Shown: positions 7,099 to 23,497, counted from the stretch's first letter. The stretch is 64,000 nucleotides of DNA from a virus (IMGVR_UViG_3300003375_000020:19380-83379); one strand, 5' to 3'. Numbers and translations are program-made. The notes: generated by a model from the sequence alone, not told the origin.

Positions 7099-8034
7099 AT
7101 GAAAATAGGATTAATTAGCATGCTAGGAAATGTTGGTACCACACTAAACTCTCAAGGTGGAGCGTATGGATTAATAGTAACTAGAATGCTTAAAGATAAT
7201 CATCCGCAAGATGAAGTTATAGCGAACCCCGATCCAAAAGATTGGGGTTCTTTTGATATACTATACGATTGTGAAGGAGTCAATTTTGTAGCAGGATCTT
7301 TTAATATTCCTGGTGGACCACGACCCATTCACAAAGAAAAAATGCAAGCCATTGCAGACTTTAAAGGAGTGCTTAGATTCTCTGATATTATATTTGACTA
7401 TAACAAATTTAATGCTAGATTAAAAATAGAAAATGTGCAATATCCAGATGTTAATCATATCTCGTGGTATAATACTTTTTTATCACAAGGATTTAAATCT
7501 AAAAAAGCAGTGATTGGAGATTCTCATGCATTATCAGTGTGGAGACCAAAACATACACTAGACTTTACTCCTGGTAGAACATTGTATGGATTTCTAAAAA
7601 GAGAATCTCCAGAATCGTATAACGAAACATTCGATGATGTTACACTATATTTTGGAAATATTGATTTAAGATTTCATTTATATAGACAACAAAATCCAGA
7701 AGGCGCAACAAAAGAATTATTTGAAAGATACATTGATTTTGCAAGACAATTAAAAAATCCTACTTTAGTAGAACCTTTACCAATCGAGCATGAATCAAGA
7801 AAAATTCCTGGTACAGGATTATATAAAAAGCAACCATTCTTTGGATCAAGAAATGAAAGAATGCGATTAAGACAAGTTGCAGTAGACGTATTAAGAAATT
7901 CTGGTTTTCCATTAATACAATGGCCAGAAGAATGGATAGACGAAGATGGTACTAAAATGCTAGATATTCTAGAGTCTAAAAGTTCAGTGCATTTAAAACC
8001 GAAGAATTATCCATTTTTAAAAGAAATACTATGA
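7099..8034 (+). CDS. Conserved phage protein with SGNH/GDSL-like GDSH motif, coupled to the PLP enzyme
   Basis: AVIGDSHA, FGNIDLRFH, D..HLKP; 4-nt overlap with the next gene. Confidence 0.55.
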   Translation: MKIGLISMLGNVGTTLNSQGGAYGLIVTRMLKDNHPQDEVIANPDPKDWGSFDILYDCEGVNFVAGSFNIPGGPRPIHKEKMQAIADFKGVLRFSDIIFDYNKFNARLKIENVQYPDVNHISWYNTFLSQGFKSKKAVIGDSHALSVWRPKHTLDFTPGRTLYGFLKRESPESYNETFDDVTLYFGNIDLRFHLYRQQNPEGATKELFERYIDFARQLKNPTLVEPLPIEHESRKIPGTGLYKKQPFFGSRNERMRLRQVAVDVLRNSGFPLIQWPEEWIDEDGTKMLDILESKSSVHLKPKNYPFLKEIL

Positions 8035-8939
8035 CATTTGAAATTACAACAGATGTAAGAAATAAAGACATTCCAGAAGGAATGAGTGTAGAACAGGCTA
8101 AACAATATTATTTAGATATGTACGGAACAGGATTTGTTTCGAGAATGCCTAAAGTAATAATAGAACCATTTGAAGATAAGTTTATTGTTCGATGTGATTT
8201 ATCTTTAGCAGGATTTAAAGCGTTTGCTGCAGAAAAAGTAATCGCAGAATGTCCTAAAGATACGTTTGTTTACGTAGCACCAAGAGTTGGTCACGCACCC
8301 GAAGCAATTGCGAATTTAGCTCAATTATATGGTAAAAAATGTGTATTCTTTGCTCCTGCTTCAAAAGAAGTTTCAAAGCATCAAGCAGTTGTAATGGCTT
8401 ACGGAGCTGATCTAAGATTTGTTAAAACTCCTGCGATGCCGACAATTAATATTTACGCTAAAAGATGGGCAGAAAAAAATAATGCTCAATATTTAAATTT
8501 TGGTTTATCAGGAATTCCAGCAGTAACAGCCGGAATTGTAAATTTTGCTAATGGTATTCCAGAACCACCAGAATTTTGGTGTGCAGTATCAACAGGAACT
8601 ATGATCAGAGGTTTACAAATTGGTTGGCCAAATGCTAAACCTTACGGTGTTGCGGTTGCAAGAAATATAAAGAAAGGCGAAATTGGTAGAGCGATTTTAG
8701 AAAGCGCAACAATACCATTTTTAAAACCGCTTAAAGCAGAATTACTTCCTCCGTTTCAAACAACTGCCACCTATGATGCCAAAGCATTCGATGTATTCAG
8801 AAGAAAAGCAAAAGCGGGTGCTTATTTTATTAATGTTGGTGCTGACGCTCAAATAGAAAAAAGAGTTAAAGAAGTAGATATGAAATCAGTAGATTCTCAA
8901 AGGGCTTGGGGAGATATGAGAGATTTAGAAAGAGCATAA
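8031..8939 (+). CDS. PLP-dependent enzyme, fold type II (PALP; cysteine synthase/ACC deaminase-like)
   Basis: VRCDL..AGFK (PLP lysine), AYGADL, WCAVSTGT phosphate loop, TYDAK. Confidence 0.8.
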   Translation: MTFEITTDVRNKDIPEGMSVEQAKQYYLDMYGTGFVSRMPKVIIEPFEDKFIVRCDLSLAGFKAFAAEKVIAECPKDTFVYVAPRVGHAPEAIANLAQLYGKKCVFFAPASKEVSKHQAVVMAYGADLRFVKTPAMPTINIYAKRWAEKNNAQYLNFGLSGIPAVTAGIVNFANGIPEPPEFWCAVSTGTMIRGLQIGWPNAKPYGVAVARNIKKGEIGRAILESATIPFLKPLKAELLPPFQTTATYDAKAFDVFRRKAKAGAYFINVGADAQIEKRVKEVDMKSVDSQRAWGDMRDLERA

Positions 8940-8950
8940 AATAATGTAAT

Positions 8951-9133
8951 ATGCAAATAGGAACTATAATAATATCTGAACCATACATACAATCTGACTA
9001 TGATGTATCTAAAAAAGTTTTATATATAATGGAATCTAATATTAGAAGAATGAAGCATATGATAGATAATGGATTTTATGTAAGTGAATATTCAGAAAAA
9101 GCATGGCAACAATTTAAAGCATTAAACGTATAA
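8951..9133 (+). CDS. Hypothetical protein
   Basis: ORF in a gene-dense operon. Confidence 0.5.
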   Translation: MQIGTIIISEPYIQSDYDVSKKVLYIMESNIRRMKHMIDNGFYVSEYSEKAWQQFKALNV

Positions 9134-9134
9134 T

Positions 9135-9428
9135 ATGGCAACAGTAAAAAAACAAAGTATTTTACAACAAGCGCATGAAATAGTTTTTGAAAGAAATGAA
9201 GAGAAAGAACGCATGTACGGTGACTTTATAGAAGGCATGGAACAAACCGCCAGAATCGCATCAGAGATGTCCAGGAAAGAAATAACTACACAAGATGCTT
9301 ATAATGTATTAATAGCATTAAAGCTATCCAGAGCGTCTTGGAATTACAAACAGGATAACTATTTAGACGCTTTAGCATACATGGCGTCATTAGATCAGTA
9401 TTTAAACACAAAAAATAAAATAAAATGA
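9135..9428 (+). CDS. DUF6378-like helical phage protein
   Basis: SILQQA...R..YG...LK..R....DNYLD...Y pattern. Confidence 0.7.
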   Translation: MATVKKQSILQQAHEIVFERNEEKERMYGDFIEGMEQTARIASEMSRKEITTQDAYNVLIALKLSRASWNYKQDNYLDALAYMASLDQYLNTKNKIK

Positions 9429-9577
9429 CAGTAGAAGAAAAAGCAGCAATTTATGATCAAATAGATCAATTTTTATCAGAATGTTATGAAGTAGATGAAC
9501 AAGGAAATCCACTTGATGAAGATATGGATTTAATTGTAATTGGTGAAGGAGTTGCTAATATAATGGGATATCTTTAA
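9425..9577 (+). CDS. Small acidic hypothetical protein (50 aa, below the ORF-track cut-off)
   Basis: MTVEEKAAIYDQIDQFLSECYEVDEQGNPLDEDMDLIVIGEGVANIMGYL; overlaps the upstream stop. Confidence 0.6.
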   Translation: MTVEEKAAIYDQIDQFLSECYEVDEQGNPLDEDMDLIVIGEGVANIMGYL

Positions 9578-9587
9578 AATAAATAAT

Positions 9588-9863
9588 ATGTGCGTAGTAT
9601 CAATGATAGGTGATCATTATAATCATAAATGGAATCAGCCTAATTATCAACAATATTTTACAAATATACATAACATTAGCAGAGAAGAATTTAATACTCT
9701 TAAAAAAGAAGTTGAAGAAATGAAACAGCTTCTTATAAAAGCTAAAATTTATGATGAAAAAAATAATGAACCTAATTGTGAAATAGAGAACAAAATTGCA
9801 ACTCTAAAAAAAATAGCGGAATTAATGGGTGTAAATCTTAATGATGTTTTTAAAGAAAAATAA
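9588..9863 (+). CDS. Hypothetical coiled-coil protein
   Basis: MCVVSMIGD...EPNCE pattern; operon packing. Confidence 0.6.
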   Translation: MCVVSMIGDHYNHKWNQPNYQQYFTNIHNISREEFNTLKKEVEEMKQLLIKAKIYDEKNNEPNCEIENKIATLKKIAELMGVNLNDVFKEK

Positions 9864-9868
9864 ATAAT

Positions 9869-10105
9869 ATGAATGAATTAGTTTCAAATGATGGTCAACT
9901 ATTTGTTAAATTAGACCGAACAGATGTATTACACATCGATGCCGGAAATTCTCCAGGTATGACTACGTATAAAGGAAAATTAAATTGGGAAGTAGAATAT
10001 AATTATTTTTTAAAACCTGGTACAGGATCTTTGGTTTTAAAAGTACCATTAACAGTATCTGATGAAGATATGATGAATAACTATACAAATTATATAATAC
10101 ACTAA
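9869..10105 (+). CDS. Hypothetical protein
   Basis: Operon packing. Confidence 0.5.
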   Translation: MNELVSNDGQLFVKLDRTDVLHIDAGNSPGMTTYKGKLNWEVEYNYFLKPGTGSLVLKVPLTVSDEDMMNNYTNYIIH

Positions 10106-10106
10106 T

Positions 10107-10661
10107 ATGGAAATAAAACCAAAAGAAAGGACTTTGCATTTCGCAAAACAAGTAGATCAAGATAGTATTAATCTTTTAACTAAATCTATTTTAGAAATTA
10201 ATGAAGACGATGAGTATTTAATAAAGTTAGCAGGTATTAACGATTTAGTATACATTCCAAAACCCATTAAGATTTATATTGATTCTTACGGTGGAGCAGT
10301 GTATCAAATGTTTGGTTTATTGGGTGTGATAGAAAAATCAAAAGTACCAATACACACAATTGTAACAGGTTGCGCAATGAGTTGTGGATTCATGATCTCT
10401 ATAACTGGACATAGACGTTTTGCTTATGATAAAGCTACTTTCTTATATCATCAAGTAAGTACAGGTTTTTGGGGAAAAGCTAAAGACATGGAAGAAGACT
10501 TAGCTGAAATGCTTCGTTTACAAAAAATGATCGAAGATCAAACATTAGCAAAAACAAAATTAACAAAAAAACAATTAAAAGAGTGTTACGATGGTAAGAA
10601 AGATTGGTCTTTCAATGCAGAAGAAGCATTATCATATCAAATAATTGATGAAATAATATAA
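10107..10661 (+). CDS. clpP: ClpP-family serine protease
   Basis: YIDSYGG, G.AMSCG (catalytic Ser), FLYHQ (His), AEEAL.Y.IIDEI. Confidence 0.9.
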   Translation: MEIKPKERTLHFAKQVDQDSINLLTKSILEINEDDEYLIKLAGINDLVYIPKPIKIYIDSYGGAVYQMFGLLGVIEKSKVPIHTIVTGCAMSCGFMISITGHRRFAYDKATFLYHQVSTGFWGKAKDMEEDLAEMLRLQKMIEDQTLAKTKLTKKQLKECYDGKKDWSFNAEEALSYQIIDEII

Positions 10662-10662
10662 T

Positions 10663-11055
10663 ATGGAAATTTTAATTATTATTGGATATTTCTTTTTTAC
10701 AACTTTTGCAATTTTTGGATTAATTAATTTTTTACATAATAGAAAAATAGACATGAATTTAACAAACGAATTTTACTCAATTAGAGAATGGGCACAAGAT
10801 AAAGGCATTTATGATAAAGGAGATGCAAAGACTCAATACATTAAATTATTAGAAGAAACAGGTGAATTGGCGAAAGCAATTCTAAAAGAAGACGAAGAAG
10901 AATTTGTAGACGCTATTGGTGATTGTGTGGTAGTACTTACCAATCTTGCTAAATTAAAAGGGTATAATATTGAAGATTGCATTAACTCTGCTTACGAAGT
11001 TATTGCTAAGAGAAAAGGAACCATGCAAAACGGAAGTTTTGTTAAAGAATCTTAA
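10663..11055 (+). CDS. MazG-like all-alpha NTP pyrophosphohydrolase
   Basis: KLLEETGELA...DAIGD..VVL motif; AY..I..RKG.M.NG.FVKE tail. Confidence 0.85.
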   Translation: MEILIIIGYFFFTTFAIFGLINFLHNRKIDMNLTNEFYSIREWAQDKGIYDKGDAKTQYIKLLEETGELAKAILKEDEEEFVDAIGDCVVVLTNLAKLKGYNIEDCINSAYEVIAKRKGTMQNGSFVKES

Positions 11056-11056
11056 T

Positions 11057-11560
11057 ATGACAAAACAAAAAAGATTAGACATTGTTTTTTTAAACATAGC
11101 GAAAGAAGTATCTGCTCTATCTCACTGTGTTAGAGCTAAAGTTGGTTGCGTTATTGTTAAAGACGGTAACGTAATTAGCTTTGGTTATAACGGCACTCCT
11201 ACTGGAATGGATAATTGTTGCGAAGATAAGTTGCGTATGAATGGCGATGAAGGAGGTTGGATCGATCCAGAAACCATTGAAGCTCAATACCCTTTTGAAG
11301 ATGATCATGGAAGGTACAGATTATTTTCTAAACCCGAAGTATTACACGCAGAATCAAATGCAATTCTTAAAGCAGCAAAAATGGGGTTTTCTACTAACGA
11401 AGCCACTATGTATTTAACTCTTTCTCCATGTATTGATTGCGCGAAACTTATTCTGCAATCGGGAATAAAAAAAGTTATATATTCTGAATTATTCTATCGA
11501 GATAATGGTAGTGTAGAATTTTTAAAACAATTTATTGAAGTAGAACACTATGAATTTTAG
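11057..11560 (+). CDS. dCMP deaminase
   Basis: C.RAKVG, GYNGTP, HAESNAI, SPCIDC zinc motifs; true start is the ATG at 11057. Confidence 0.93.
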   Translation: MTKQKRLDIVFLNIAKEVSALSHCVRAKVGCVIVKDGNVISFGYNGTPTGMDNCCEDKLRMNGDEGGWIDPETIEAQYPFEDDHGRYRLFSKPEVLHAESNAILKAAKMGFSTNEATMYLTLSPCIDCAKLILQSGIKKVIYSELFYRDNGSVEFLKQFIEVEHYEF

Positions 11561-12191
11561 TAACGCAACAGAAGCATTCGAATGGTTATTTCATCACATA
11601 GATATAGCTGGAGAAAGTTTCGCAGGCACAAAAGCAGTATTTAATCAATCTTTCATTTTATTAGATCCTCAAGATAAAATCATTACTACTCCTGAAAGAA
11701 AGTTCAATTTAGAATACGCAGAGTTTGAATGGAATTGGTATTTAAAAGGCAATCGCGATGCATCAGAAATTGCAGAAAGAGCAAAGATATGGAAACAGAT
11801 GATGATTCCTGGCACCACAGAAGTCAATTCTAATTACGGATATTTTTGGAATTATAACGATCAACTAAAAAGAGTCGTAGAAGATCTTAAATCTAATCCA
11901 GAAACAAGAAGAGCAATCGTAGTACATTATTTGCCACACGAAATAGATCGGTACAAATACGATACTCCTTGCAACGATGTATTAAATTTCTACATTAGAA
12001 ATAATAGATTAGATCTAACAGTATTCGCAAGAAGCATAGATTTAGTTTTTGGTTTTTGTAATGACCAATTTACTTTTGCAAAATTAATGGAGAAAGTAGC
12101 TTATGAATTAAAAATCCCGGTTGGAGAAATGAATTGGCTGATTACCAATCTCCATGTATACCCAAGACATTATAACTTACTAGAAAAATAA
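11550..12191 (+). CDS. Thymidylate-synthase-fold enzyme resembling T4 gp42 dCMP hydroxymethylase
   Basis: EVNSNYG, NPETRRA, DTPC, RSIDLVFGFCND (Asp at the dUMP/dCMP specificity site), LHVYPRH. Confidence 0.8.
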   Translation: MNFSNATEAFEWLFHHIDIAGESFAGTKAVFNQSFILLDPQDKIITTPERKFNLEYAEFEWNWYLKGNRDASEIAERAKIWKQMMIPGTTEVNSNYGYFWNYNDQLKRVVEDLKSNPETRRAIVVHYLPHEIDRYKYDTPCNDVLNFYIRNNRLDLTVFARSIDLVFGFCNDQFTFAKLMEKVAYELKIPVGEMNWLITNLHVYPRHYNLLEK

Positions 12192-12241: not shown

Positions 12242-12700
12242 ATGCAAGCATTCTGCGACCGAGAATTTCTCGAAGATCAATTATCACGTCTTACCCAAAA
12301 GAGTTACAATAAATTTCATTGGTGGCGCAGATACGAAATTAGAAAAGAACTAGACAAAAAAACTCCCCTTTACGAAAAGATTAGAAATGGTGATTACGAT
12401 CATTCTGATTACCTTTATCAAATGGAACACGAATTCTATTTGATGAAGGATAAACTAGTTGGTATTATCTATCCTGATGAGAGACATGATATTACTGGAC
12501 TTTGTTTAGAACGTGCAAGAAGATTAAACGAAGATTATCAAAAGCACGAAAAGGAGCTCATGGCTAAGATCTATTCTGACTTTCGTAAAACATTCAACAT
12601 TCAAAAAGAAGAACTAACCAAGATAATGGAAGACTTCGATGGCACACTATTGGACTTATACGATCACGTTAAAAAACTAAGTAAACATGAAAAAATATAG
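12242..12700 (+). CDS. Hypothetical protein
   Basis: AAAAGTTATG start after a promoter-like AT stretch. Confidence 0.6.
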   Translation: MQAFCDREFLEDQLSRLTQKSYNKFHWWRRYEIRKELDKKTPLYEKIRNGDYDHSDYLYQMEHEFYLMKDKLVGIIYPDERHDITGLCLERARRLNEDYQKHEKELMAKIYSDFRKTFNIQKEELTKIMEDFDGTLLDLYDHVKKLSKHEKI

Positions 12701-13271
12701 CAAATTAATTGTGCCCAAAGATTCTGCGTGGGACAATACTAGATTTCAATGGGGAAGATATGTTAATTGGAGAATTAGATATTTTTTTCAAGGAGTTTGG
12801 AACATTATTAGATGGATCCCAACAATATACAAAGATAAAGATTGGGATGATGCTTTCATTCTTATGATCTTACAAAAGAAGATAGAACACCAAAGAGCAG
12901 AATTGGTAAATGCTAATAGGCACACTGATATCGACAATGATAATTTTTGGATGACAGTGGTTCTTAATTTGATAGACAAGGAACTTAACAGTTATTACGA
13001 AACGGAAAAATATAATTTTTGTAAAATTGAAGATAGTTTCGGTGAGCCTGATCAATACGGATCAAGAGAATGGAACATGATACTTACTGAAAATCGTTTG
13101 GATGAATATCTAAATTTATATCCATCTGCTACAAGAAAAGTGATAAAAAAACACGGTAGAGAAAATGATACTGATTATCTTTCTTTATGTGTATGCATTT
13201 ATAATCAAAGAAGGTGCAGAGATTTAATATTTGAAATTTTAAAACAAAAATCAGCCAATTGGTGGGATTAA
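12687..13271 (+). CDS. Hypothetical protein (common phage type ending in WWD)
   Basis: IWKDKDWD-like motif and C-terminal WWD. Confidence 0.6.
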   Translation: MKKYSKLIVPKDSAWDNTRFQWGRYVNWRIRYFFQGVWNIIRWIPTIYKDKDWDDAFILMILQKKIEHQRAELVNANRHTDIDNDNFWMTVVLNLIDKELNSYYETEKYNFCKIEDSFGEPDQYGSREWNMILTENRLDEYLNLYPSATRKVIKKHGRENDTDYLSLCVCIYNQRRCRDLIFEILKQKSANWWD

Positions 13272-13462
13272 AAAATAAGTTATGAAAAAAGAAATCAAAA
13301 AAGGAAATCTAAATTACGACGGATCAGGTAGAGCATACCCCGATAATCCACAAATAAAAAAATTGGAGTTGTATTTGGGAAAATAATGGTAAGTACGAAA
13401 ACTATCAATCACACCCAGCAATTAAAGCACAATTATCTAATTAGGACATATTTATATGTACT

Positions 13463-13714
13463 ATGATAAGATTTGCTAGACATAATAACAAAGACTATGT
13501 GATAGTAGATACCAATTTCATAATTAATGAATGTGACGAGACCATTGAAGTACCAATTCATATTAGAGTAGATACAACAAATATATCCAAAGATCAAAAT
13601 TCGTTAGTATTTAAAAAAGCAGCATTGCTTTTTAATAGATCAATCATAATTAAAAAACAATTAAATAATACGCCAGAAAAATCATGGTGGAATAAAATTT
13701 TTAAAAACAATTAA
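13463..13714 (+). CDS. Hypothetical protein
   Basis: Preceded by CATATTTAT motif. Confidence 0.55.
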   Translation: MIRFARHNNKDYVIVDTNFIINECDETIEVPIHIRVDTTNISKDQNSLVFKKAALLFNRSIIIKKQLNNTPEKSWWNKIFKNN

Positions 13715-16598: not shown

Positions 16599-17204
16599 AT
16601 GCCAAGAGTACAACATAAATATCATTTTATATATAAAACTACTAATTTAAAAAATGGTAAATTTTATATAGGAATGCATTCAACTTCTAATTTAGATGAT
16701 GGATATTTGGGTTCTGGAGATAAATTAAGAAGATCTATAAGAAAATACGGAAAAGAAAATTTTAAATTAGAAATTTTAGAGTATTTTGAAAATAGAGAGT
16801 TATTATCTAAAAGAGAAAAAGAATTAATTAATGAAGATGTATTGAAAGATCCAATGTGCATGAATTTAAAAGTTGGTGGAGAAGGTGGATGGCATGTATA
16901 TGCTAATAAAGCATTTAAAGAAAAATTAAAAGATATAAAATATAAAGAAAATTTTTCTAGAATATGTATAGAAAGAAATAAAAAATGTTTTGAACTAGGT
17001 ATTATTAAATCCTGGAATAAAACATATGATTGGACTGATAAGTATCATACACCAGAGACCATTAAAAAAATGAAAAATTCTAAAATAGGTCATGGTAAAG
17101 GAGAATTGAATTCTCAGTTTGGAACTTTTTGGATAACTGATGGAAAGTATAATAAAAAAACAAAATATGAAATTCCTGAAGGGTGGTACAAAGGTCGCGT
17201 ATAA
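16599..17204 (+). mobile_element. Seg-like GIY-YIG homing endonuclease
   Basis: FIYKTTNL.NGKFYIG.H...DDGYLGSG; HTPETIKKM NUMOD3; NSQFGT.WITDG tail. Confidence 0.88.
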
Positions 17205-17849: not shown

Positions 17850-17923
17850 TCCCTCTTAGCTCAATTGGTAGATGTACGTGGCTTTTAACCATGGGGTTGT
17901 GAGTTCGAATCTCACAGGGGGCA
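17850..17923 (+). tRNA. tRNA-Lys(TTT)
   Basis: CGTGG-CTTTTAA-CCATG; GTGAG-TTCGAAT-CTCAC. Confidence 0.85.
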
Positions 17924-17944
17924 CATAAAAATAAAATAAATAGT

Positions 17945-18169
17945 ATGTCAATTTACGCAACAAATTACATAATTGATGAAGAAACACGTGAACCAAAACT
18001 TGTTAAACATTTAAATCAAACAAGAATTGATAGAGGTACCGCAAAAAGACCACCTGGAAAGTGGAATAAAAATGGTGCTAATCAAAAAGAAAGAAAACGT
18101 TGGAGTAAAGGAGATTCAAAAAAAGAATTTAAATTAGACAAAATGAAAAAAGACTTTGAAGGATTGTAA
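17945..18169 (+). CDS. Basic hypothetical protein
   Basis: ORF inside the tRNA array. Confidence 0.5.
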   Translation: MSIYATNYIIDEETREPKLVKHLNQTRIDRGTAKRPPGKWNKNGANQKERKRWSKGDSKKEFKLDKMKKDFEGL

Positions 18170-18188
18170 GGACTAAAACCTTACAACA

Positions 18189-18500
18189 ATGACAAACACA
18201 AGAGAATATCGTACAACAACAAACAGAAGTGTTTATAACAAACTGTATAAAGAATATAATGCTCACTGTTCTTACTGCAAATGGCATGGACCATCATCTG
18301 AAAATGATAGATATAAATGTTATTATATAAGAGAATGGAATAATAAAAAGAAAGCTAAATATCCTAACTGGAAATTAGTATCAAAAAATCAAAAACAGTG
18401 GATGAAAAAACCATTGATTTTTAAATCAAGTATTAATCCATACAGTCCTTGGACTTATTGGATTGATATTGAATGGCCTAGTAAAATTAGACCAAAATAG
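18189..18500 (+). CDS. Hypothetical protein (CSYC; NWKLVSKN.KQW)
   Basis: ORF inside the tRNA array. Confidence 0.55.
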   Translation: MTNTREYRTTTNRSVYNKLYKEYNAHCSYCKWHGPSSENDRYKCYYIREWNNKKKAKYPNWKLVSKNQKQWMKKPLIFKSSINPYSPWTYWIDIEWPSKIRPK

Positions 18501-18506
18501 AAAAAC

Positions 18507-18577
18507 GTCGAGTTGGTGCAATGGTAGCATACCTGATTCCAAACCAGTTGATGAGGGTTCGAATCCTACGGTGGGTG
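18507..18577 (+). tRNA. tRNA-Trp(CCA), degenerate (acceptor strands do not pair)
   Basis: D-arm GTGC-AATGGTA-GCAT, anticodon loop TTCCAAA, GGTTCGAATCC. Confidence 0.55.
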
Positions 18578-18583
18578 CAAAAT

Positions 18584-18655
18584 AGACTTGTAGTTTAACG
18601 GATAGAATGATTGGCTACGGACCAATTGGTGGGAGTTCGATTCTCTCCAAGTCTA
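18584..18655 (+). tRNA. tRNA-Arg(ACG)
   Basis: AGACTTG/CAAGTCT; ATTGG-CTACGGA-CCAAT. Confidence 0.92.
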
Positions 18656-18681
18656 CAATTAAAAAATTAAAAATTAAAGTT

Positions 18682-19224
18682 ATGAGAAAGAAAATTATTT
18701 TTATTGATGTTGATGGGCCATTGGCTTGGGCAACATGGTACGATGGTAAAGTGAAGATAAACGAAAATACTATGAATGAGTTTACAATACCTTACCCATT
18801 AGTAAAAGAGGATTGTGAAGCATTGCAAGAAATTTGTGACAAGACTAATGCAGAATTAGTATTATCATCAGATTGGAAGTTACACTTTACTCTTAGACAA
18901 ATGAGTGATACATTTATTGAGTTTGGTATTCATGCTCCATTGATTGATATCACAACACATATGAGTAGTAGAAAGCTGGGAATTTGGAATAAGATGAGTA
19001 ATCCATCCTTAGAGTTTGAAAGAGCACATCAGATTGTAAAATGGGTTAAAGATAATAAGATTAGTAACTGGATTGCAATTGATGATATGAAATTAAGTGC
19101 AGAGTTCAAATGGATGAAACATCGTATCCCAATGTGGAGGCATGTACAAGTTGATGGAGATTTTGGACGTGGTGGAAGATTGAGAGATAAGGTAGATGAA
19201 TGTATTAATAAACTAAACCGATAA
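18682..19224 (+). CDS. HAD-domain protein (RNA-repair-associated HAD type)
   Basis: FIDVDG, VLSSDW, WIAIDD; true start 18682 (AAAGTTATG), since the ORF-track start lies inside tRNA-Arg. Confidence 0.8.
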   Translation: MRKKIIFIDVDGPLAWATWYDGKVKINENTMNEFTIPYPLVKEDCEALQEICDKTNAELVLSSDWKLHFTLRQMSDTFIEFGIHAPLIDITTHMSSRKLGIWNKMSNPSLEFERAHQIVKWVKDNKISNWIAIDDMKLSAEFKWMKHRIPMWRHVQVDGDFGRGGRLRDKVDECINKLNR

Positions 19225-19297
19225 GGCGAGTTGTCCGAGTGGATAAAGGCACAGCACTGCAAACGCTGTTACGTGAGTTCAATTCTCACCTTAACCT
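19225..19297 (+). tRNA. tRNA-Cys(GCA), degenerate acceptor stem
   Basis: CAGC-A-CTGCAAA-C-GCTG; GTGAG-TTCAATT-CTCAC; U discriminator. Confidence 0.65.
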
Positions 19298-19326
19298 CTT
19301 TTGGATCTTTGACATATGGAATTTAT

Positions 19327-19402
19327 CGAGATGTGGACCAATTGGCTAGGTCGCTTCATTTGGGATGAAGACATCGTGCAAGTTCGACCCTTGTCATCTC
19401 GA
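19327..19402 (+). tRNA. tRNA-Pro(TGG)
   Basis: CGAGATG/CATCTCG; CTTCA-TTTGGGA-TGAAG. Confidence 0.92.
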
Positions 19403-19493
19403 CTAAAGCTAATTTAATTCTTTTATCCCTGCTTGGAGTAAAAGTATGAAATAAACATAGTGCTTTATAACATAAAAGATAGAATTAGTATTT

Positions 19494-19568
19494 GGGGAGT
19501 CATGTACCAAGGCTTGGCGATGCTGCTTTGCAAGCAGCGTGTGGACGGTTCGATACCGTTACTCTCCA
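19494..19568 (+). tRNA. tRNA-Ala(TGC)
   Basis: GGGGAGT/ACTCTCC with G3.U; GCTGC-TTTGCAA-GCAGC. Confidence 0.92.
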
Positions 19569-19649
19569 CTATAGGGTGTAATTATACCTACAACAAAGGG
19601 AAGTTTCAGAGATGGTTCCTAATCGCACTCTTTCAAATGCGATGGATAT

Positions 19650-19725
19650 GGGCGCTTCGCTTAGCTGGTTTTAAAGCGTCACTCTTACAAAGTGAAGATC
19701 ATCCGTTCGACTCGGATAGTGCCTA
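19650..19725 (+). tRNA. tRNA-Val(TAC)
   Basis: GGGCGCT/AGTGCCT; TCACT-CTTACAA-AGTGA. Confidence 0.92.
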
Positions 19726-19780
19726 CAAAGAGGACAAAATGTATAGTAGCCTCAAGGATGATATCTCCTACTATACTCAT

Positions 19781-19852
19781 GCAGCAGTAGCTCAAAGGAA
19801 GAGCGTCACATTGCCAATGTGAAGGTTGAGATTTCGAAATTCTTTTGCTGCT
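19781..19852 (+). tRNA. tRNA-Gly(GCC)
   Basis: GCAGCAG/TTGCTGC; TCACA-TTGCCAA-TGTGA. Confidence 0.92.
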
Positions 19853-19857
19853 CATAT

Positions 19858-19929
19858 TGCTTATTAGTATAACGGCTAGTACATTTGGTTTTGGTCCAAA
19901 TAGTTGGGGTTCGAATCCCTGATAAGCAT
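19858..19929 (+). tRNA. tRNA-Gln(TTG)
   Basis: TGCTTAT/ATAAGCA; TTTGG-TTTTGGT-CCAAA. Confidence 0.92.
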
Positions 19930-19934
19930 CATAA

Positions 19935-20016
19935 GGAGAGTCCTAAAGGAGTAGTTAGCTGTCTTGAAAACAGTGAAGAGGTAACACTTGTGAGGGTTCG
20001 AGTCCGTCACTCTCCG
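19935..20016 (+). tRNA. tRNA-Ser(TGA), atypical D-arm
   Basis: GGAGAGT/ACTCTCC; GCTGT-CTTGAAA-ACAGT; long variable arm. Confidence 0.8.
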
Positions 20017-20120
20017 CTAAAACATTCCGAAACCCAGGCACAAATTGTTGGTGGAGTATGATACGTAAAGTATCCCGAGACAGCAGGGGAAATAACGTTA
20101 AGAGGAATGTTTTTTAATAT

Positions 20121-20192
20121 GGGTCTTGAAGCTTTAAGGTGAAGTGCATGTTTGTGGCACATGAGAACTCGGTTCGATACCGTGCTAGACCC
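20121..20192 (+). tRNA. tRNA-His(GTG) with encoded G-1
   Basis: GGGTCT/AGACCC; CATGT-TTGTGGC-ACATG. Confidence 0.85.
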
Positions 20193-20275
20193 CGGCACCA
20201 TGATAAAACTTGGTACGTAACAAGTGGATAGAAGATTATGTCTAGGCTAGATAGGTTTTGCTTTTATCAAATTTT

Positions 20276-20360
20276 GGAAGTTTGCTCGAAAGGTAAGAGG
20301 CCAGTTTGCTAAACTGAAGCCTGGGTAAAACCAGAAGTGGCTCGGTACCACTAACTTCCG
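20276..20360 (+). tRNA. tRNA-Ser(GCT)
   Basis: GGAAGTT/AACTTCC; CAGT-TTGCTAA-ACTG; variable arm CTGG-GTAAAA-CCAG. Confidence 0.88.
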
Positions 20361-20432
20361 CTACTTTACACAAAGTGTATGGTGCTGGCAAGACTTAAAA
20401 ATGGTCTCGAAGACAATGCCTAAAGTTGTCCT

Positions 20433-20457
20433 CTCTACCTACGGGGTAGAGTTTTTT
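20433..20457 (+). terminator. Intrinsic terminator inside the tRNA array
   Basis: CTCTACC/GGTAGAG stem + T6 abutting tRNA-Ile. Confidence 0.7.
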
Positions 20458-20529
20458 GGAGATATAGTAGAATGGTAAGCACACATGACTGATACTCATG
20501 GAATCCAAGTTCGAGCCTTGGTATCTCCA
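20458..20529 (+). tRNA. tRNA-Ile(GAT)
   Basis: GGAGATA/TATCTCC; CATGA-CTGATAC-TCATG. Confidence 0.92.
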
Positions 20530-20539
20530 CACAATATAA

Positions 20540-20627
20540 GGACGGGTTGCTTTAGAGGCCGAAAAGTCTAGACTGTTAATCTAGTGTCGAAAGACCATCG
20601 TGAGTTCGAATCTCACCTCGTCCTCCA
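20540..20627 (+). tRNA. tRNA-Asn(GTT) with long variable arm and encoded CCA
   Basis: GGACGGG/CTCGTCC; CTAGA-CTGTTAA-TCTAG; GTC-GAAA-GAC variable arm. Confidence 0.85.
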
Positions 20628-20636
20628 CATTTATAA

Positions 20637-20718
20637 GCCAACGTCGCATAGTGGCAATTGCAGCAGACTGTAAATTTGTTCTCTTCGGAGTTCGAAGGTT
20701 CGAGTCCTTCCGGTGGCA
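20637..20718 (+). tRNA. tRNA-Tyr(GTA)
   Basis: GCCAACG/CGGTGGC; CTGTAAA loop; CTC-TTCG-GAG variable arm. Confidence 0.92.
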
Positions 20719-20730
20719 CATTAAAAATAT

Positions 20731-20768
20731 AGTTTTTATATACAGCTTAATGTAGTATATTTACTATA
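20731..20768 (+). promoter_or_regulatory. Putative internal promoter upstream of tRNA-Glu
   Basis: TTTTTATATAC...GTAGTATATTTAC resembles the other promoter elements. Confidence 0.5.
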
Positions 20769-20779
20769 TATTAAACAAT

Positions 20780-20851
20780 GCTCTTGTCATCTAATGGTTA
20801 GGATGTCAAATTTTCGATTTGAAAATGAGGGTTCGATTCCCTTCAAGAGTA
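20780..20851 (+). tRNA. tRNA-Glu(TTC)
   Basis: GCTCTTG/CAAGAGT; TCAAA-TTTTCGA-TTTGA. Confidence 0.92.
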
Positions 20852-20877
20852 CTTTTAAATCACTATACAATAAATAA

Positions 20878-20954
20878 CGAAAGTGGGGCTGCTAGGCTGT
20901 GGCCGCTGGATTGTCACTCCAGATATCAGGCGAGTTCGAATCTCGTACTTTCGG
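20878..20954 (+). tRNA. tRNA-Asp(GTC)
   Basis: CGAAAGT/ACTTTCG; CTGGA-TTGTCAC-TCCAG; G73. Confidence 0.88.
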
Positions 20955-21029
20955 CAGAATGTTACCTATTGGAATAACCAGCGCATGACGTGGTTGGCGT
21001 CCGACTTGGAGAGTAGGTAATTTTTCATT

Positions 21030-21101
21030 GATCCTTAGCTCATCAGGTTAGAGCAAGTGACTCATAATCATTAGGTGACCAGTTCGAGTCTGGTAGGATC
21101 A
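21030..21101 (+). tRNA. tRNA(CAT), Met or Ile2
   Basis: GATCCT/AGGATC; AGTGA-CTCATAA-TCATT. Confidence 0.88.
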
Positions 21102-21111
21102 ACTTTAATAT

Positions 21112-21181
21112 TGCGAGGAAGTGAATAGGTATCACGCTAGTCTCATAAGCTAGAGAACCGGATCAATACCGGCGATCGCAA
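21112..21181 (+). tRNA. tRNA(CAT), Met-type, partly degenerate
   Basis: TGCGA/TCGCA; CTAGT-CTCATAA-GCTAG; T-loop ATCAATA. Confidence 0.7.
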
Positions 21182-21404
21182 CTAAAATTTTGCTAGAAAG
21201 TAAATGAGTGATGTAGTTATAGAAGTGTAAAGACTATCGCATTACAGTAGTATCAGCTACGTTCATTTATTAGTATAGGTAGTTAGCTTGGGCGGTTGGC
21301 TGAAACGAAGTAATTCGTAGTCATATTAATATAAGGATAGGTTAAATTCCTATACGGTTCTTTCTAACTTACTACACTCTGATAAGTGTACAAAATTTTA
21401 AAAT

Positions 21405-21476
21405 CGCATTATGGTGAAAAGGCTATCACAGAGTCCTCATAAGGCTTTATTCCAATTTCGAGTATTGGTAATGCGA
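21405..21476 (+). tRNA. tRNA(CAT), Met-type
   Basis: CGCATTA/TAATGCG; GAGTC-CTCATAA-GGCTT. Confidence 0.85.
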
Positions 21477-21481
21477 CATTT

Positions 21482-21556
21482 GGTTGATTAGTTCAGCTGG
21501 TTTAAGAACACTTGCCTTGTAAGCATGAGACTTCGGTTCGAATCCGAAATTGACCT
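21482..21556 (+). tRNA. tRNA-Thr(TGT)
   Basis: GGTTGAT/ATTGACC; CTTGTAA loop. Confidence 0.9.
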
Positions 21557-21649
21557 CCCTAGTTATACCAGAGAAGTTAGGTAGTATAAACAGCCCTCCT
21601 GTCCACAGGTCACCGCGAGGAGGTTGGTTGGTGACGAGGCTTCTCAAAT

Positions 21650-21721
21650 GCAGATATCGTATAATGGCTATTACTCCATCCTTCCAAGTTGGAGATGTAG
21701 GTTCGATTCCTATTATCTGCT
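21650..21721 (+). tRNA. tRNA-Gly(TCC)
   Basis: GCAGATA/TATCTGC; CTTCCAA loop. Confidence 0.9.
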
Positions 21722-21941
21722 CACGAGCTGGTTATAAATAATCAACAGCTAGTTCCATCCTGAATGATGAGAAGCGGAGGTGATGCCCGTATGGATTCCT
21801 AGAGTGTAGTAGGGGAACACTTAAAGCTCATCAAGCTTGTACCTAATAAAGTCAAATTGATTATTCCTAACTTATTCGGTTTGGAACCGGGTAAGGACAG
21901 CTAAGACACCTGTGAGTTGGATAAATAAAGGTGTCACTTTT

Positions 21942-22017
21942 GGTCCTGTAGCATAACGGATTAATGCAACAATCTTCTAAATTGTTTTTTATAAGAGTTC
22001 GAATCTCTTCAGGACCT
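21942..22017 (+). tRNA. tRNA-Arg(TCT)
   Basis: GGTCCTG/CAGGACC; ACAAT-CTTCTAA-ATTGT. Confidence 0.92.
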
Positions 22018-22033
22018 CTAAAAATGAAAGAAT

Positions 22034-22237
22034 ATGATTTGGTTAATTGAACTGATTTGGTTATTAAGTATTGTATATGTCATTCATAGAATGATAGGAA
22101 GTAATAATAAAAAATCTTTAGATGGTGTTATAGGAAACACGCCAGGATTTGATGCAATAATATTTGTATGGGGAGCACCATTTTTTGCATTAGTTGATTT
22201 AGGTGCAAGATGGATTTCACACATGAAGCATAAATAA
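22034..22237 (+). CDS. Small membrane protein
   Basis: Two hydrophobic segments. Confidence 0.55.
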   Translation: MIWLIELIWLLSIVYVIHRMIGSNNKKSLDGVIGNTPGFDAIIFVWGAPFFALVDLGARWISHMKHK

Positions 22238-22241
22238 AAAT

Positions 22242-22270
22242 TGTTGAGTGGCGAAATTGGCAGACGCACC
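22242..22270 (+). pseudogene. Orphan 5' fragment of a Leu-type tRNA (D-arm only)
   Basis: TGGCGAAATTGGCAGACGCACC D-arm, then truncated just before the endonuclease promoter. Confidence 0.7.
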
Positions 22271-22305
22271 TTTTTGTTAATTTATAATATTTATCATAAA
22301 GAGGT

Positions 22306-22971
22306 ATGAGTGCTATAATTTATGAAACGGTAAATTTATTTAACAAAAAGAATAACATACTTCCTTATAGGTATATTGGAAGTGATCAACACAACAAACC
22401 TAGCTATTTAGGAAGCAGTAAAGAACTATGTGTAGATATAAAAAAACTAGGAGTAGATCAATTTGAAAAAAGAACTCTTTGTGAATTTAAAGAGGAGATT
22501 TCTAATATACTGCTAAGAAAAATAGAATCTCAAATTCAAACCTATTTAGGAGTAGCAAAAGATGAAACTTATTACAACAGGACAAATAGCTCTCTTAGAG
22601 GTTATGAGGAAACTGATGAACAGAGAGAAGCTAGAAAAGTTAACTTGTTAAAGAATAGAAAAATTTGGTGGGAATCTCTAACTGAAGAACAAAGGGAAGA
22701 AGAAAAAAAGAAAAGTGGAAAGTTTTTAGCCGCTTATAATAGATCAACTAAAGGAAAAACTTATGAGGAGATTTTTGGAGCAGAAAAAGCAAAGCTTAAA
22801 AAAGAGAAACACTCAGGAGGCAACAACAGTAATGCTAAAAAAGTATTACATAAGCCTTCAAATAAAATTTTTAATTCTGCTTTGGAGGCAATGAACTTTT
22901 TTAGCATAAAAAGATATGGAAGTTTGTATACAAGAATTAAAAAAGGTGAATTTGAATTTTTAAAAAGCTAA
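22306..22971 (+). mobile_element. Seg-like GIY-YIG homing endonuclease
   Basis: IIYETVNL...YRYIGSD....YLGS; ETYYN; GKTYEEIFG. Confidence 0.82.
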
Positions 22972-22975
22972 ACAC

Positions 22976-23130
22976 TGTTTCCTGGCGAAACGCTGAAAAG
23001 CTTGGCAGACGCGCTCCTCTTGTCTCGAGGGTGTGGAGCAACTAATAAAGATTGGATAATGGGTTGACCACAAAGCGCGCAATGTCCTCTTCCTAAAGTC
23101 CACGTCATGGTTCGAATCCATGGGAAACAG
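22976..23130 (+). ncRNA. Oversized (155 nt) tRNA-like RNA with GTC in the anticodon position
   Basis: TGTTTCC/GGAAACA acceptor, CATGG-TTCGAAT-CCATG T-arm, Leu-type D-arm with hairpin insert, about 70-nt variable region. Confidence 0.7.
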
Positions 23131-23209
23131 CAATAGTACGTTCGTAAGTAGCCGGTTTAAAACTATTCAAATAAGGAAACACGGCCTCCCTAAAAATGGG
23201 GGACATCAA

Positions 23210-23282
23210 GCACCTGTAGCCCAACGGGAGAGGCAATAGACTTAGGATCTATTCAGTGTCGGTTCGAATCCGACTAGGTGTA
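23210..23282 (+). tRNA. tRNA-Leu(TAG) with short variable loop
   Basis: GCACCTG/TAGGTGT; ATAGA-CTTAGGA-TCTAT. Confidence 0.88.
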
Positions 23283-23390
23283 CAAAAGAAACAGAAGTGT
23301 TTAATGAATGTAGTTTTCTCATTATGTTTCTTCCGGCCGTAGTTAGACTTCAAGATAAACTCATTCAAAGCTGGGTCGCTCCCAGTGCAT

Positions 23391-23465
23391 GCCTGTGTGA
23401 CGTAAATGGCATACCGTATCAGACTTAAAATCTGAGTCATGTGGGTTCGAATCCCATCACTGGTA
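23391..23465 (+). tRNA. tRNA-Leu(TAA) with short variable loop
   Basis: GCCTGTG/CACTGGT; TCAGA-CTTAAAA-TCTGA. Confidence 0.88.
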
Positions 23466-23497
23466 CTTTTAATATTTATTAAAAAAAGGAGGTTTAC

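Follow-up and report, generated by a model that had tools for sequence, protein, structure and literature searches.

Several phage systems that modify pyrimidines are the closest known counterparts of the locus described here. The T4 system comprises gp42, the dCTPase gp56, the deaminase Cd and beta-gt. Thymidine hypermodification in phages M6 and ViI uses a 5-hmdU DNA kinase, an amino-acid:DNA transferase (AADT) and a PLP-dependent decarboxylase, and the M6 decarboxylase, gp52, acts on Calpha-glycinyl-thymidine in DNA (PMC8989533). The trio of PRA-PH/MazG, dCMP deaminase and TS is enriched on cytosine-modified contigs (PMC8670742). RB69 and DLP3 encode 5-hydroxy-dCMP synthases alongside arabinosyltransferases. 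Active-site residues are diagnostic among these TS-fold enzymes: Asp replacing ThyA N177 (T4 D179) confers dCMP specificity, an acidic residue replacing ThyA L143 lets water in and leads to a hydroxymethyl product, and 5-hydroxy-dCMP synthases (RB69 gp48 type) have Asn instead of ThyA D169 (PMC13326640).

Here, we analyze a 64,000-nucleotide window from IMGVR_UViG_3300003375_000020, an uncultivated freshwater phage whose contig is ~53% complete. A candidate modification cluster lies at 7099-12191 (Table 1). Judging from sequence, the phage probably makes 5-hydroxymethylcytosine (5hmC). A conserved, previously undescribed pair of proteins, U311 and a PLP enzyme, likely decorates this base further in phage DNA; we found no description of such decoration by this pair in the literature. 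We read the interval as a two-stage cytosine modification pathway, in which 5hmC would be made before replication and then tailored on DNA by the U311/PLP pair, and assign this reading a probability of roughly 0.55. The genes named in the original prediction are all in place on the + strand, and its MazG, dCMP deaminase and DUF6378 calls are borne out by Pfam (PF03819, PF00383 and PF19905). Computationally, the original interpretation is upheld and strengthened, with its amino-acid-derived or acylated product still hypothetical.

Table 1. Features of the candidate cytosine modification locus, with positions counted from the first nucleotide of the window.
Feature	Length (aa)	Position	Strand	Basis or remark
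U311, two domains; candidate enzyme targeting the 5hmC CH2OH group within DNA	311	7099..8034	+	AlphaFold2 pLDDT 91.7
Fold-type-II PLP-dependent enzyme, M6 gp52-like family	302	8031..8939	+	phrog_7093, AlphaFold2 fold
DUF6378 protein	97	9135..9428	+	PF19905 E 1.5e-12
ClpP-like gene		10107-10661		Inside the interval; absent from the gene list of the original prediction
MazG-type nucleoside triphosphate pyrophosphohydrolase	130	10663..11055	+	PF03819 E 6.6e-8, PF01503 E 9e-5
dCMP deaminase	167 (from ATG)	11057..11560	+	PF00383 E 1.2e-24, phrog_174 E 1.9e-53
TS homolog; candidate gp42-type dCMP hydroxymethylase (5hm-dCMP synthase)	213	11550..12191	+	PF00303, 1b49, D/D/D signature
Two conserved genes without assigned function	152 + 194	12242..13271	+	Downstream neighbors of the TS homolog in close relatives

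The TS homolog matches PF00303 (E 2.9e-26, 92.6 bits), and its best PDB relative is the T4 dCMP hydroxymethylase 1b49 (phmmer, E 1.7e-17). In the phmmer alignment, its EVNSNYG, RSIDLVFGFCND and LHVYPRH segments pair with EINSNYG, RSNDVVFGFRND and LHVYSRH of T4 gp42, and the gp42 motif match that had been predicted for this protein holds. T4 D179, within FGFRND, is matched by the Asp of FGFCND, whereas PDB 6l18 has Asn at this position. Read against ThyA, the signature D-T-P-C ... R-S-I-D ... F-C-N-D corresponds to L143D, C146, D169 and N177D. The catalytic Cys is present (D-T-P-C aligned with T4 D-F-M-C; ThyA C146, T4 C148), and the acidic residue at the L143 position is an Asp three residues ahead of it. 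By sequence, the TS homolog is a match to the published 5hm-dCMP synthase signature (L143D, D169, N177D), and the predicted dCMP specificity agrees with the published diagnostic residues (PMC13326640).

Two other identities were considered for this protein and rejected. Canonical ThyA, marked by Asn177 and a hydrophobic residue at 143, does not fit the D/D/D signature, and the NCBIfam score is 75.4 bits against an equivalog cut-off of 327. The RB69 and DLP3 5-hydroxy-dCMP synthases are likewise phage TS homologs in which N177D occurs together with an acidic residue at 143, but they have Asn at ThyA-169, whereas the TS homolog keeps Asp there (R-S-I-D) and so falls outside their class. The catalytic Cys and the Asp residues at ThyA-177 and ThyA-143 are shared with T4 gp42, although the protein is shorter than its T4 counterpart (213 versus 246 aa). 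Some relatives carry an additional canonical ThyA (L007, 324.7 bits; L011), and ThyX occurs at 17 loci; since these relatives have a separate ThyA or ThyX, the short TS homolog is not their dTMP synthase.

The MazG and dCMP deaminase genes lie directly upstream of the TS homolog, and the end of the deaminase gene overlaps the TS start by 11 nt. The deaminase likely starts at the ATG at 11057 rather than at the TTG at 10970. MazG is a candidate dCTPase that could both supply dCMP and exclude dCTP; one relative (L008) has a dUTPase/DCD-family gene in its place. An NTP pyrophosphatase and a dCMP deaminase also accompany the hydroxymethylase in T4, and the TS, PRA-PH/MazG and dCMP deaminase core is shared with the 5hmC carbamoyltransferase pathway detected by MetaGPA (PMC8670742). 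Unlike T4, this phage has a family-A polymerase, and it is not T4-like.

Residues 127-311 of U311 have an SGNH hydrolase/acyltransferase fold, as judged by Foldseek and VIA-align on the AlphaFold2 model. In VIA-align, this region matches 7tog (Z 12.1, rmsd 3.6 A, 162 residues aligned) and 3p94 (Z 11.5, rmsd 3.3 A, 158 residues aligned). The original prediction had called this GDSH protein SGNH-like and proposed structure prediction as a check; the predicted structure confirms the call for the C-terminal domain. Invariant residues of U311 are G140, D141, S142 and H143, which hold the GDS Ser of block I, together with H193, R234, R254, E292 and the candidate catalytic H298, and near-invariant are G186, N187, I188 and D189, which include the Gly/Asn of SGNH block III. 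Block V reads S-V-H instead of the usual DxxH. Pfam Lipase_GDSL is matched only below threshold and in relatives (E 0.02); U311 itself matches nothing in Pfam or NCBIfam, and its PHROG matches (13881 and 17781) are both function-unassigned.

Residues 1-110 of U311 resemble the N-terminal, acceptor-side domain of T4 beta-glucosyltransferase (BGT; first ~118 residues), a link found only by profile-profile comparison. The U311 profile matches the BGT family profile with an hhalign probability of 97.4% (E 1.6e-11, 103 columns, a common NxFGG motif) and the single T4 BGT sequence with a probability of 90%, and one relative scores E 0.078 against PF09198. The link was not recovered by BLASTP, by a U311-profile hmmsearch of PDB sequences, by PF09198 or in the structure-search lists. 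A whole GT-B beta-glucosyltransferase can be rejected: the C-terminal half has an SGNH fold, and the column of the BGT catalytic D100 is not conserved. Nor does the ~53% complete phage genome contain any match to PF09198 or to a BGT HMM. U311 shares with T4 a domain homologous, by profile-profile comparison, to BGT residues 1-118. The locus differs from T4 in that an SGNH domain replaces the UDP-glucose-binding half of BGT, no glucosyltransferase is present and a PLP enzyme is added.

U311 homologs are also found fused to other domains. P0381 joins U311 to HMUDK_hel, the helical domain of 5-hmdU-DNA kinase (43 bits, above cut-off), and a 795-aa Aeromonas protein has a C-terminus homologous to this region (E 1.7e-20). 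In some phages, U311 is fused to the function-unassigned protein F387 (hhalign probability 100%, E 8.5e-71). The fusions to the kinase helical domain echo the 5-HMUDK-PLP-AADT fusions of thymidine hypermodification systems (PMC8989533).

The start of the PLP gene overlaps the U311 stop codon as ATGA, the translational coupling that had been predicted. The PLP protein scores below threshold against Pfam PALP (22.6 bits versus a cut-off of 35), but its AlphaFold2 model (pLDDT 93.8) has the predicted fold-type-II PLP fold by Foldseek (probability 1.00), with D-cysteine desulfhydrase and diaminopropionate ammonia-lyase as nearest matches. It matches phrog_7093 over profile positions 15-278 of 279 (E 1.9e-46), the family that also contains Pseudomonas phage M6 gp52 (E 2e-159). 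K63 aligns with the M6 Schiff-base lysine K36, the S-T-G-T loop with M6 S-S-G-T, and YDxKA[WF] is common to both; K63, S187, T188, T190, Y248 and D249 are invariant. When M6 gp52 is compared directly with the family as a single sequence, hhalign gives a weak match (probability 35%, E 3.9e-4). The shared PHROG and lysine uphold, as homology, the tie to the M6 class drawn in the original prediction; ViI gp226 also belongs to this class of decarboxylases acting on amino acids borne by DNA. By homology to M6 gp52, the PLP enzyme may decarboxylate an amino-acid-derived adduct on a DNA base.

The locus resembles M6 and ViI in this PLP enzyme and in its predicted start from a 5-hydroxymethylpyrimidine produced by a TS homolog. 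In contrast to those phages, the base is predicted to be cytosine rather than uracil, and there is no P-loop kinase, recognizable AADT or radical SAM enzyme. As previously noted for this locus, the ~53% complete contig has no detectable 5-hmdU kinase or AADT/aGPT-Pplase. M6 gp54 and gp51 gave no phmmer match in the contig or in 80 loci from IMG/VR, and none of five relatives, one of them 99% complete, contains PF18723 or PF18724. A thymidine-type hypermodification system is rejected on the absence of a P-loop 5-hm-pyrimidine DNA kinase and of AADT/aGPT-Pplase from the ~53% complete contig and the 80 loci.

We find the U311/PLP pairing conserved in many phages, support that goes beyond the original prediction. 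Among the 76 of the 80 IMG/VR loci in which a PLP ORF was called, 69 have a U311 homolog within ~7 kb of the PLP gene, mostly directly adjacent, and this proximity persists even where U311 identity falls to 27-35%. The flanks of these IMG/VR loci contain 41 TS homologs, all of them D/D/D gp42-type and none with Asn-177. Of five loci checked that lack a flanking TS, three have a D/D/D TS elsewhere in their records, and gene 42 of Aeromonas phage 31 is also D/D/D. The pair was found only with gp42-type TS homologs, never with solely the Asn-177 type, although these counts are inflated by shared ancestry, since all come from related uncultivated phages. In a few phages (L025, L072-75), no U311 lies next to the PLP gene, and Aeromonas phages have U311 without the PLP gene. 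Cultured phages that encode U311 are Aeromonas phages 31, 44RR2.8t and 25 and Tenacibaculum phage PTm1.

T4-like contigs have the order PolB-MazG-..-TS-dCD-F387-F327-U311-PLP-UvsX-gp41, compared with 43-imm-42-beta-gt-segA-uvsX-40-41 in T4. The pair lies between gene 42 and uvsX, in the slot of T4 beta-gt. In many relatives, F387 and a second function-unassigned protein, F327, accompany the pair; the ~53% complete contig of this phage lacks F327, as well as F387, dNMP kinase, ThyA and ThyX.

We propose that, in a first stage before replication that follows the T4 paradigm, MazG would turn dCTP into dCMP, and the TS homolog, given its active-site signature, would turn dCMP into 5-hydroxymethyl-dCMP, while dCMP deaminase would balance the dUMP/dTMP supply. 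The 5hmC would then be built into DNA. In the second stage, the translationally coupled U311/PLP pair would tailor 5hmC on DNA. U311 would dock on 5hmC-DNA through its BGT-like domain, and its SGNH center (Ser142/His298) could acylate the 5-CH2OH group, either as the final modification or as an activation step in the role of the 5-hmdU DNA kinase of thymidine hypermodification. Because the BGT-N/SGNH chimera replaces the M6/ViI kinase and AADT, activation would be acyl rather than phosphoryl. The gp52-like PLP enzyme might then remodel an amino-acid-derived adduct with a free alpha-amine, decarboxylation being the likeliest reaction. Cytosine would end up with an amine-bearing side chain that would block host nucleases. 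A PLP decarboxylase requires a free alpha-carboxylate, which would be missing from a simple aminoacyl ester formed by an SGNH enzyme; these acylation and decarboxylation steps therefore do not connect cleanly. This chemistry in full, with a BGT-derived DNA-binding domain, SGNH O-acylation (activating or final) in place of O-phosphorylation, a gp52-like PLP enzyme and, in the full module, F387 and F327, is a tentative proposal that we consider rather doubtful. If it is true, DNA bases would be hypermodified by a new route, and the resulting base would be both undescribed and widespread among T4-like and Bacteroidota-type phages of freshwater and marine habitats.

The pair might instead act before replication, on free hm-dCMP or hm-dCTP or in making a small-molecule donor, with 5hmC still being produced. 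The MetaGPA carbamoyltransferase also uses 5hm-dCTP (PMC8670742), the pair sits amid nucleotide-metabolism genes (RNR, dCD, TS, MazG), and free amino acids are the normal substrates of fold-type-II PLP enzymes. We nevertheless consider this unlikely, because the U311 N-domain is homologous to that of a DNA glucosyltransferase, a DNA-kinase helical domain is fused to U311 and the closest characterized PLP relative works on DNA polymers. Furthermore, Erythrobacter phage R6L has the PLP domain joined to a ParB-DNA methylase protein. Tailoring on DNA, as we prefer, would resemble the MetaGPA pathway in moving a non-sugar group onto the 5hmC hydroxyl, but by an SGNH protein and a PLP enzyme rather than a TobZ-like carbamoyltransferase.

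Alternatively, U311 alone could make an O-acylated (e.g., O-acetyl) 5hmC as the final product, the PLP enzyme being separate or supplying the acyl donor. Structure comparison of U311 also picks up SGNH O-acetyltransferases, OatA and PatB among them (Z 8.5-9.5; 6vjp, Z 9.5, rmsd 3.3 A, 130 aligned; 7tjb, Z 8.8, rmsd 4.1 A, 159 aligned), Aeromonas and Tenacibaculum phages have U311 and gene 42 without a PLP homolog, and F387 is missing from the phage contig. However, the start-stop overlap and the adjacency at 69/76 loci point to a single pathway. Because benzylic-type 5hmC esters are labile, such an ester would be more plausible as an intermediate than as the end product, and we regard this outcome as distinctly unlikely. 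Least probable, and in our view remote, is ordinary dTMP or nucleotide metabolism, with the TS homolog acting as thymidylate synthase or as dCMP methylase and with U311 (an esterase) and the PLP enzyme (an amino-acid lyase) as unrelated auxiliary genes: the upstream deaminase could feed a normal TS, the contig has a single PF00303 gene and no ThyX, and neither U311 nor the PLP enzyme has a curated family assignment, but the Asp residues at N177 and L143, scores far under the ThyA equivalog cut-offs, the extra true ThyA or ThyX of relatives and the restriction of the pair to D/D/D enzymes, in the beta-gt slot, argue against it.

The ClpP-like gene is probably unrelated to the modification cluster. 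The 152-aa and 194-aa genes downstream of the TS homolog have no matches in Pfam or NCBIfam, and are syntenic in L007, L011, L012 and L020-22. The DUF6378 gene is likewise syntenic with the cluster in relatives, its position being kept in L007, L008 and L011-L023.

We show that a translationally coupled pair, a chimera with a T4 beta-glucosyltransferase (BGT)-like N-terminus and an SGNH domain (the 311-aa protein U311) and a gp52-like PLP enzyme of 302 aa, is associated with gp42-type enzymes only, that is, TS-fold homologs with Asp at ThyA positions 143, 169, and 177 (D/D/D). Scanning IMG/VR with the PLP family yielded 80 loci, whose identities range from 51 to 98%. A U311 homolog lies within ~7 kb of the PLP gene, mostly adjoining it, in 69 of the 76 loci with a called PLP ORF, and U311 homologs near PLP genes reach down to 27-35% identity. 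Forty-one loci have a TS homolog within the fetched flanks; D/D/D is present in 41/41 and Asn-177 in 0/41. For five loci without a TS homolog in the flank, whole records were searched, and a D/D/D homolog was found elsewhere in three (a complete 225-kb phage and records that are 83% and 62% complete). The two records in which none was found are fragments (26% and 46% complete). Carrier phages are mutually related, and locus counts are not independent events; yet identities are low and the genes do not always follow one order. The module is also abundant, with hundreds of protein clusters in metagenomes. Comparison of gene order between T4-like contigs (PolB, MazG, F316, TS, dCMP deaminase, F387, F327, U311, PLP, UvsX, gp41, ThyX, with F387 and F327 denoting two protein families) and T4 (43, imm.1, imm, 42, beta-gt, segA, uvsX, 40, 41) indicates that the module fills the BGT slot. 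A conserved U311-PLP module tied to gp42-type enzymes is thus well supported.

The original prediction had proposed a cytosine hypermodification cluster in this interval, and every gene that it named is present there. Its three gp42 motifs all align with their T4 counterparts in T4 dCMP hydroxymethylase (PDB 1b49), the closest solved structure to the TS homolog (E = 1.7e-17), and the Asp that it placed at ThyA N177, within FGFCND, pairs with T4 D179. The TS homolog also matches PF00303. By the numbering of E. coli ThyA, the catalytic residue is C146, N177D makes dCMP the substrate, L143D/E accompanies non-methyl products, and D169N marks flavin-dependent 5-hydroxy-dCMP synthases (PMC13326640, 2026). 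With L143D, C146, D169, and N177D in its D-T-P-C, R-S-I-D, and F-C-N-D motifs, the TS homolog carries, at the sequence level, the signature of a 5hm-dCMP synthase.

Two other assignments of this protein were rejected. It is not a ThyA: with the equivalog models it reaches 75 bits, short of their cut-offs of 108-576 (327 for the best-scoring model). Furthermore, close relatives have a genuine ThyA alongside the short TS homolog (loci L007, 324.7 bits, and L011), and ThyX is present in distant relatives; since these relatives own a separate ThyA or ThyX, the short TS homolog is not their dTMP synthase. A 5hoC synthase is dismissed because Asp is kept at ThyA position 169, with no D169N. The ThyA genes of L007 and L011 lie in an extra block, between a 194-aa gene and a thioredoxin gene, that is missing from the equivalent place in the window. 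This ThyA probably holds an insertion, because Pfam matches it in two stretches.

MazG and dCMP deaminase upstream of the TS homolog reproduce the set of TS, PRA-PH/MazG, and deaminase whose enrichment on cytosine-modified contigs was detected by MetaGPA (PMC8670742). In one relative (L008), MazG is swapped for a dUTPase/DCD-family gene, which would be consistent with a dCTP/dUTP pyrophosphatase role. Scanning for P-loops turned up no candidate dNMP kinase close to the cluster.

The SGNH-like partner foreseen for the PLP enzyme is borne out by the modeled structure of U311 (pLDDT 91.7). Residues 127-311 adopt an SGNH fold in VIA-align comparisons with 7tog (Z 12.1, rmsd 3.6 Å over 162 residues) and 3p94 (Z 11.5, rmsd 3.3 Å over 158 residues). 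Family-wide, G140, D141, S142, H143, H193, R234, R254, E292, and H298 are invariant and G186, N187, I188, and D189 nearly so; these conserved residues match blocks I and III of SGNH enzymes plus a catalytic His. Among the structural neighbors are esterases as well as OatA and PatB, which are peptidoglycan O-acetyltransferases. The U311 stop and PLP start codons overlap (ATGA).

The N-terminus of U311 appears to be homologous, at the profile level, to one BGT domain, which does not make U311 a BGT family member. The U311 profile matches the T4 BGT sequence (probability 90%, E = 1.5e-6) and, more strongly, a 25-sequence BGT profile (97.4%, E = 1.6e-11, 103 columns), where U311 1-110 aligns with BGT 1-118 across an NxFGG motif that is invariant in BGT as N70, G73, and G74. 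BGT D100 is not conserved in U311. BLASTP of U311 against T4 BGT gave no significant alignment, the U311 profile search of PDB sequences did not find BGT, and Pfam PF09198 and a purpose-built BGT HMM had no match on the contig. BGT is also absent from the U311 structure-search lists (PDB Foldseek, VIA wide, and BFVD), which SGNH matches fill.

Fusions of U311 support action on hm-pyrimidine DNA. One 981-aa protein (P0381) consists, in this order, of an FkbM methyltransferase, the helical domain of 5-hmdU DNA kinase (HMUDK_hel; 43 bits, above cut-off), and U311; no Walker A motif was found in it. The helical region of P0381 shows homology (E = 1.7e-20) to the C-terminus of a 795-aa protein of Aeromonas phage 31, whose N-terminus is U311. 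U311 is joined to F387 in a second group of fusions, 640-790 aa long (hhalign probability 100%, E = 8.5e-71).

A fold-type-II PLP enzyme had likewise been anticipated, and the model of the 302-aa protein (pLDDT 93.8) has this fold, with a PALP score that is only sub-threshold. The protein matches phrog_7093 over nearly the whole profile (E = 1.9e-46), a family of which M6 gp52 is a full-length member (E = 2e-159). M6 gp52 and ViI gp226 have been experimentally shown to decarboxylate amino acids already on thymidine in DNA; ViI gp226 was modeled using a fold-type-II template, and M6 K36 is the lysine proposed to form the internal aldimine (PMC8989533). In a MAFFT alignment, K63 of the PLP protein falls on M6 K36 and its S-T-G-T on S-S-G-T, and both proteins share a C-terminal PF..YDxKA[WF] motif. 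The PLP family profile matches the single M6 gp52 sequence weakly (probability 35%). ParB homologs are known partners of phage hypermodification clusters (PMC13229309), and in Erythrobacter phage vB_EliS_R6L a gp52-like PLP domain sits behind ParB and N6/N4 DNA methylase domains; no PF00303 gene was found in this phage. Microcystis phage Mae-JY30 has a similar arrangement.

F387 (53 loci) and F327 (33 loci), which immediately precede U311-PLP in T4-like contigs, could be the pathway's missing transferase. Neither has a Pfam or PDB sequence match, and they barely resemble each other (probability 3%), with two similar-looking motifs. In the ESM Atlas, HMUDK_hel occurs on just 11-13% of members of the clusters nearest F387, and one further cluster has HMUDK_hel at 36% and ADDT at 12%. 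These figures hint at a relationship between F387 and HMUDK_hel/ADDT that Pfam and hhalign did not confirm: hhalign detected no similarity of F387 to the M6 amino-acid:DNA transferase (AADT) gp51 or to the HMUDK_hel region of P0381, and PF18723 and PF18724 had no match in five relatives. Neither F387 nor F327 has a homolog on our own contig (53% complete), which may be missing part of the genome or may encode a shorter pathway.

We propose that MazG would act as a dCTPase and that U311 would bind 5hmC in DNA and move an acyl group onto its hydroxyl. This acyl group could be the end product, or a leaving group replacing the phosphate of 5-hmdU DNA kinase. The PLP enzyme would then decarboxylate or otherwise remodel an amino-acid-derived adduct. 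Here the proposal is weakest: PLP decarboxylases depend on a free alpha-carboxylate, so the adduct would have to be side-chain or ether linked; in the full module, such an adduct probably requires F387 and F327. The first stage, making 5hmC, follows T4. The second would resemble thymidine hypermodification, with cytosine as the base and without a kinase or recognizable AADT.

Phage DNA hypermodifications defeat restriction and CRISPR, and are a source of epigenetic-sequencing tools. To our knowledge, 5hmC derivatives are so far limited to sugars and one carbamoyl group, and amino-acid/PLP chemistry to thymidine. The module would bring this chemistry to cytosine via a different activating enzyme, a glucosyltransferase/SGNH chimera. 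We found no description of the U311-PLP architecture in the literature, and nothing relevant on SGNH, amino-acid, or decarboxylase chemistry on phage 5hmC.

Cultured phages make this prediction directly testable, since they carry U311 together with a gp42-type TS homolog (phage 31). The 795-aa protein, which has U311 at its N-terminus and, at its C-terminus, homology to the part of P0381 that contains HMUDK_hel, occurs in the T4-like Aeromonas phages 31, 44RR2.8t, 25, Aes508, and others. In phage 31, the annotated gene 42 has the D/D/D signature, and a canonical ThyA is encoded separately. A tblastn search found no PLP homolog in the cultured Aeromonas carriers, whose DNA may bear an undescribed cytosine modification. 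Cultured Tenacibaculum phages also carry the U311 domain, and PTm1 holds a second TS homolog that may be of the gp42 type.

Coordinates of the modification cluster, neighboring genes, and related loci
Feature	Record	Coordinates	Remarks
U311	window	7099-8034	+ strand, 311 aa
PLP protein	window	8031-8939	+ strand, 302 aa
ClpP-like serine protease	window	10107-10661	184 aa; between small ORFs and MazG
MazG	window	10663-11055	
dCMP deaminase	window	11057-11560	
TS homolog	window	11550-12191	+ strand, 213 aa
Place equivalent to extra block	window	13271-13463	block missing
GIY-YIG endonuclease	window	16599-17204	flanks tRNA array
22 tRNA genes	window	17850-23466	cover most amino acids
HAD_SAK_2 RNA-repair-type domain protein	window	18607-19224	flanks tRNA array
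Glycan run, glycosyltransferases	window	29096-45530	two GT1-type, five GT2, one GT11 (fucosyltransferase-like), one GT17
Glycan run, other	window	29096-45530	GDP-mannose 4,6-dehydratase, three more epimerase/reductases, DegT aminotransferase, methyltransferase, DUF3431, DUF5672
Metallophosphatase	window	58228-58890	RNA-repair-like
Small P-loop protein	window	59116-59529	RNA-repair-like
DUF7275/7277	window	59533-60261	RNA-repair-like
RNA ligase	window	61071-62231	PHA02142 OB domain; RNA-repair-like
Extra block	L007	14955-16076	560-aa protein, 109-aa protein, 373-414-aa canonical ThyA
Extra block	L011	~16961	as in L007
Phage region and SusC-like receptor	L008	14431-16936	382-kb JGI contig
Aeromonas phage 31 ORF233c	L001	4992-7379	795 aa
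Aeromonas phage 31 gene 42	L102	3433-4128	D/D/D
vB_EliS_R6L gp1	L003	3819-6241	807-aa ParB-like/N6-N4 DNA methylase/gp52-like PLP fusion
F387/F327	L033, L045, L068, L087, ~50 other IMG/VR loci		e.g., L035:8847-10010, L045:5392-6378

The source IMG/VR viral contig is 83.4 kb long (CheckV completeness 53%); the window covers its bases 19380-83379, has a G+C content of ~31%, and encodes almost every gene on the + strand. Metagenomes from Trout Bog lake contain identical genes, and an identical U311 is present on a 183-kb contig. Ribonucleotide reductase, family-A DNA polymerase, HSP20, Cpn10, and Cpn60 genes lie upstream of the cluster, so this phage is not T4-like. By TS homolog, the closest cultured relatives are Bacteroides phages (44.7% identity), and megablast of the cluster interval against phage genomes gave no match. 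In L008, a SusC-like TonB-dependent receptor (CarboxypepD_reg and OMP beta-barrel), a protein typical of Bacteroidota, comes after the syntenic phage region; this border could mark a junction with the host or reflect chimeric assembly.

The ClpP-like gene is kept in some relatives and swapped out in others, and probably lies outside the modification pathway. A translationally packed 18-kb run of glycan genes, unusually large for a phage, could target the virion, host surface, or DNA. Judging by its glycosyltransferase families and sugar-nucleotide genes, the run resembles a polysaccharide synthesis cluster, and it was therefore set aside as a supplier of sugars for DNA. The tRNA array lies within a G+C-rich stretch, and the genes at 58228-62231 are possibly an RNA repair set.
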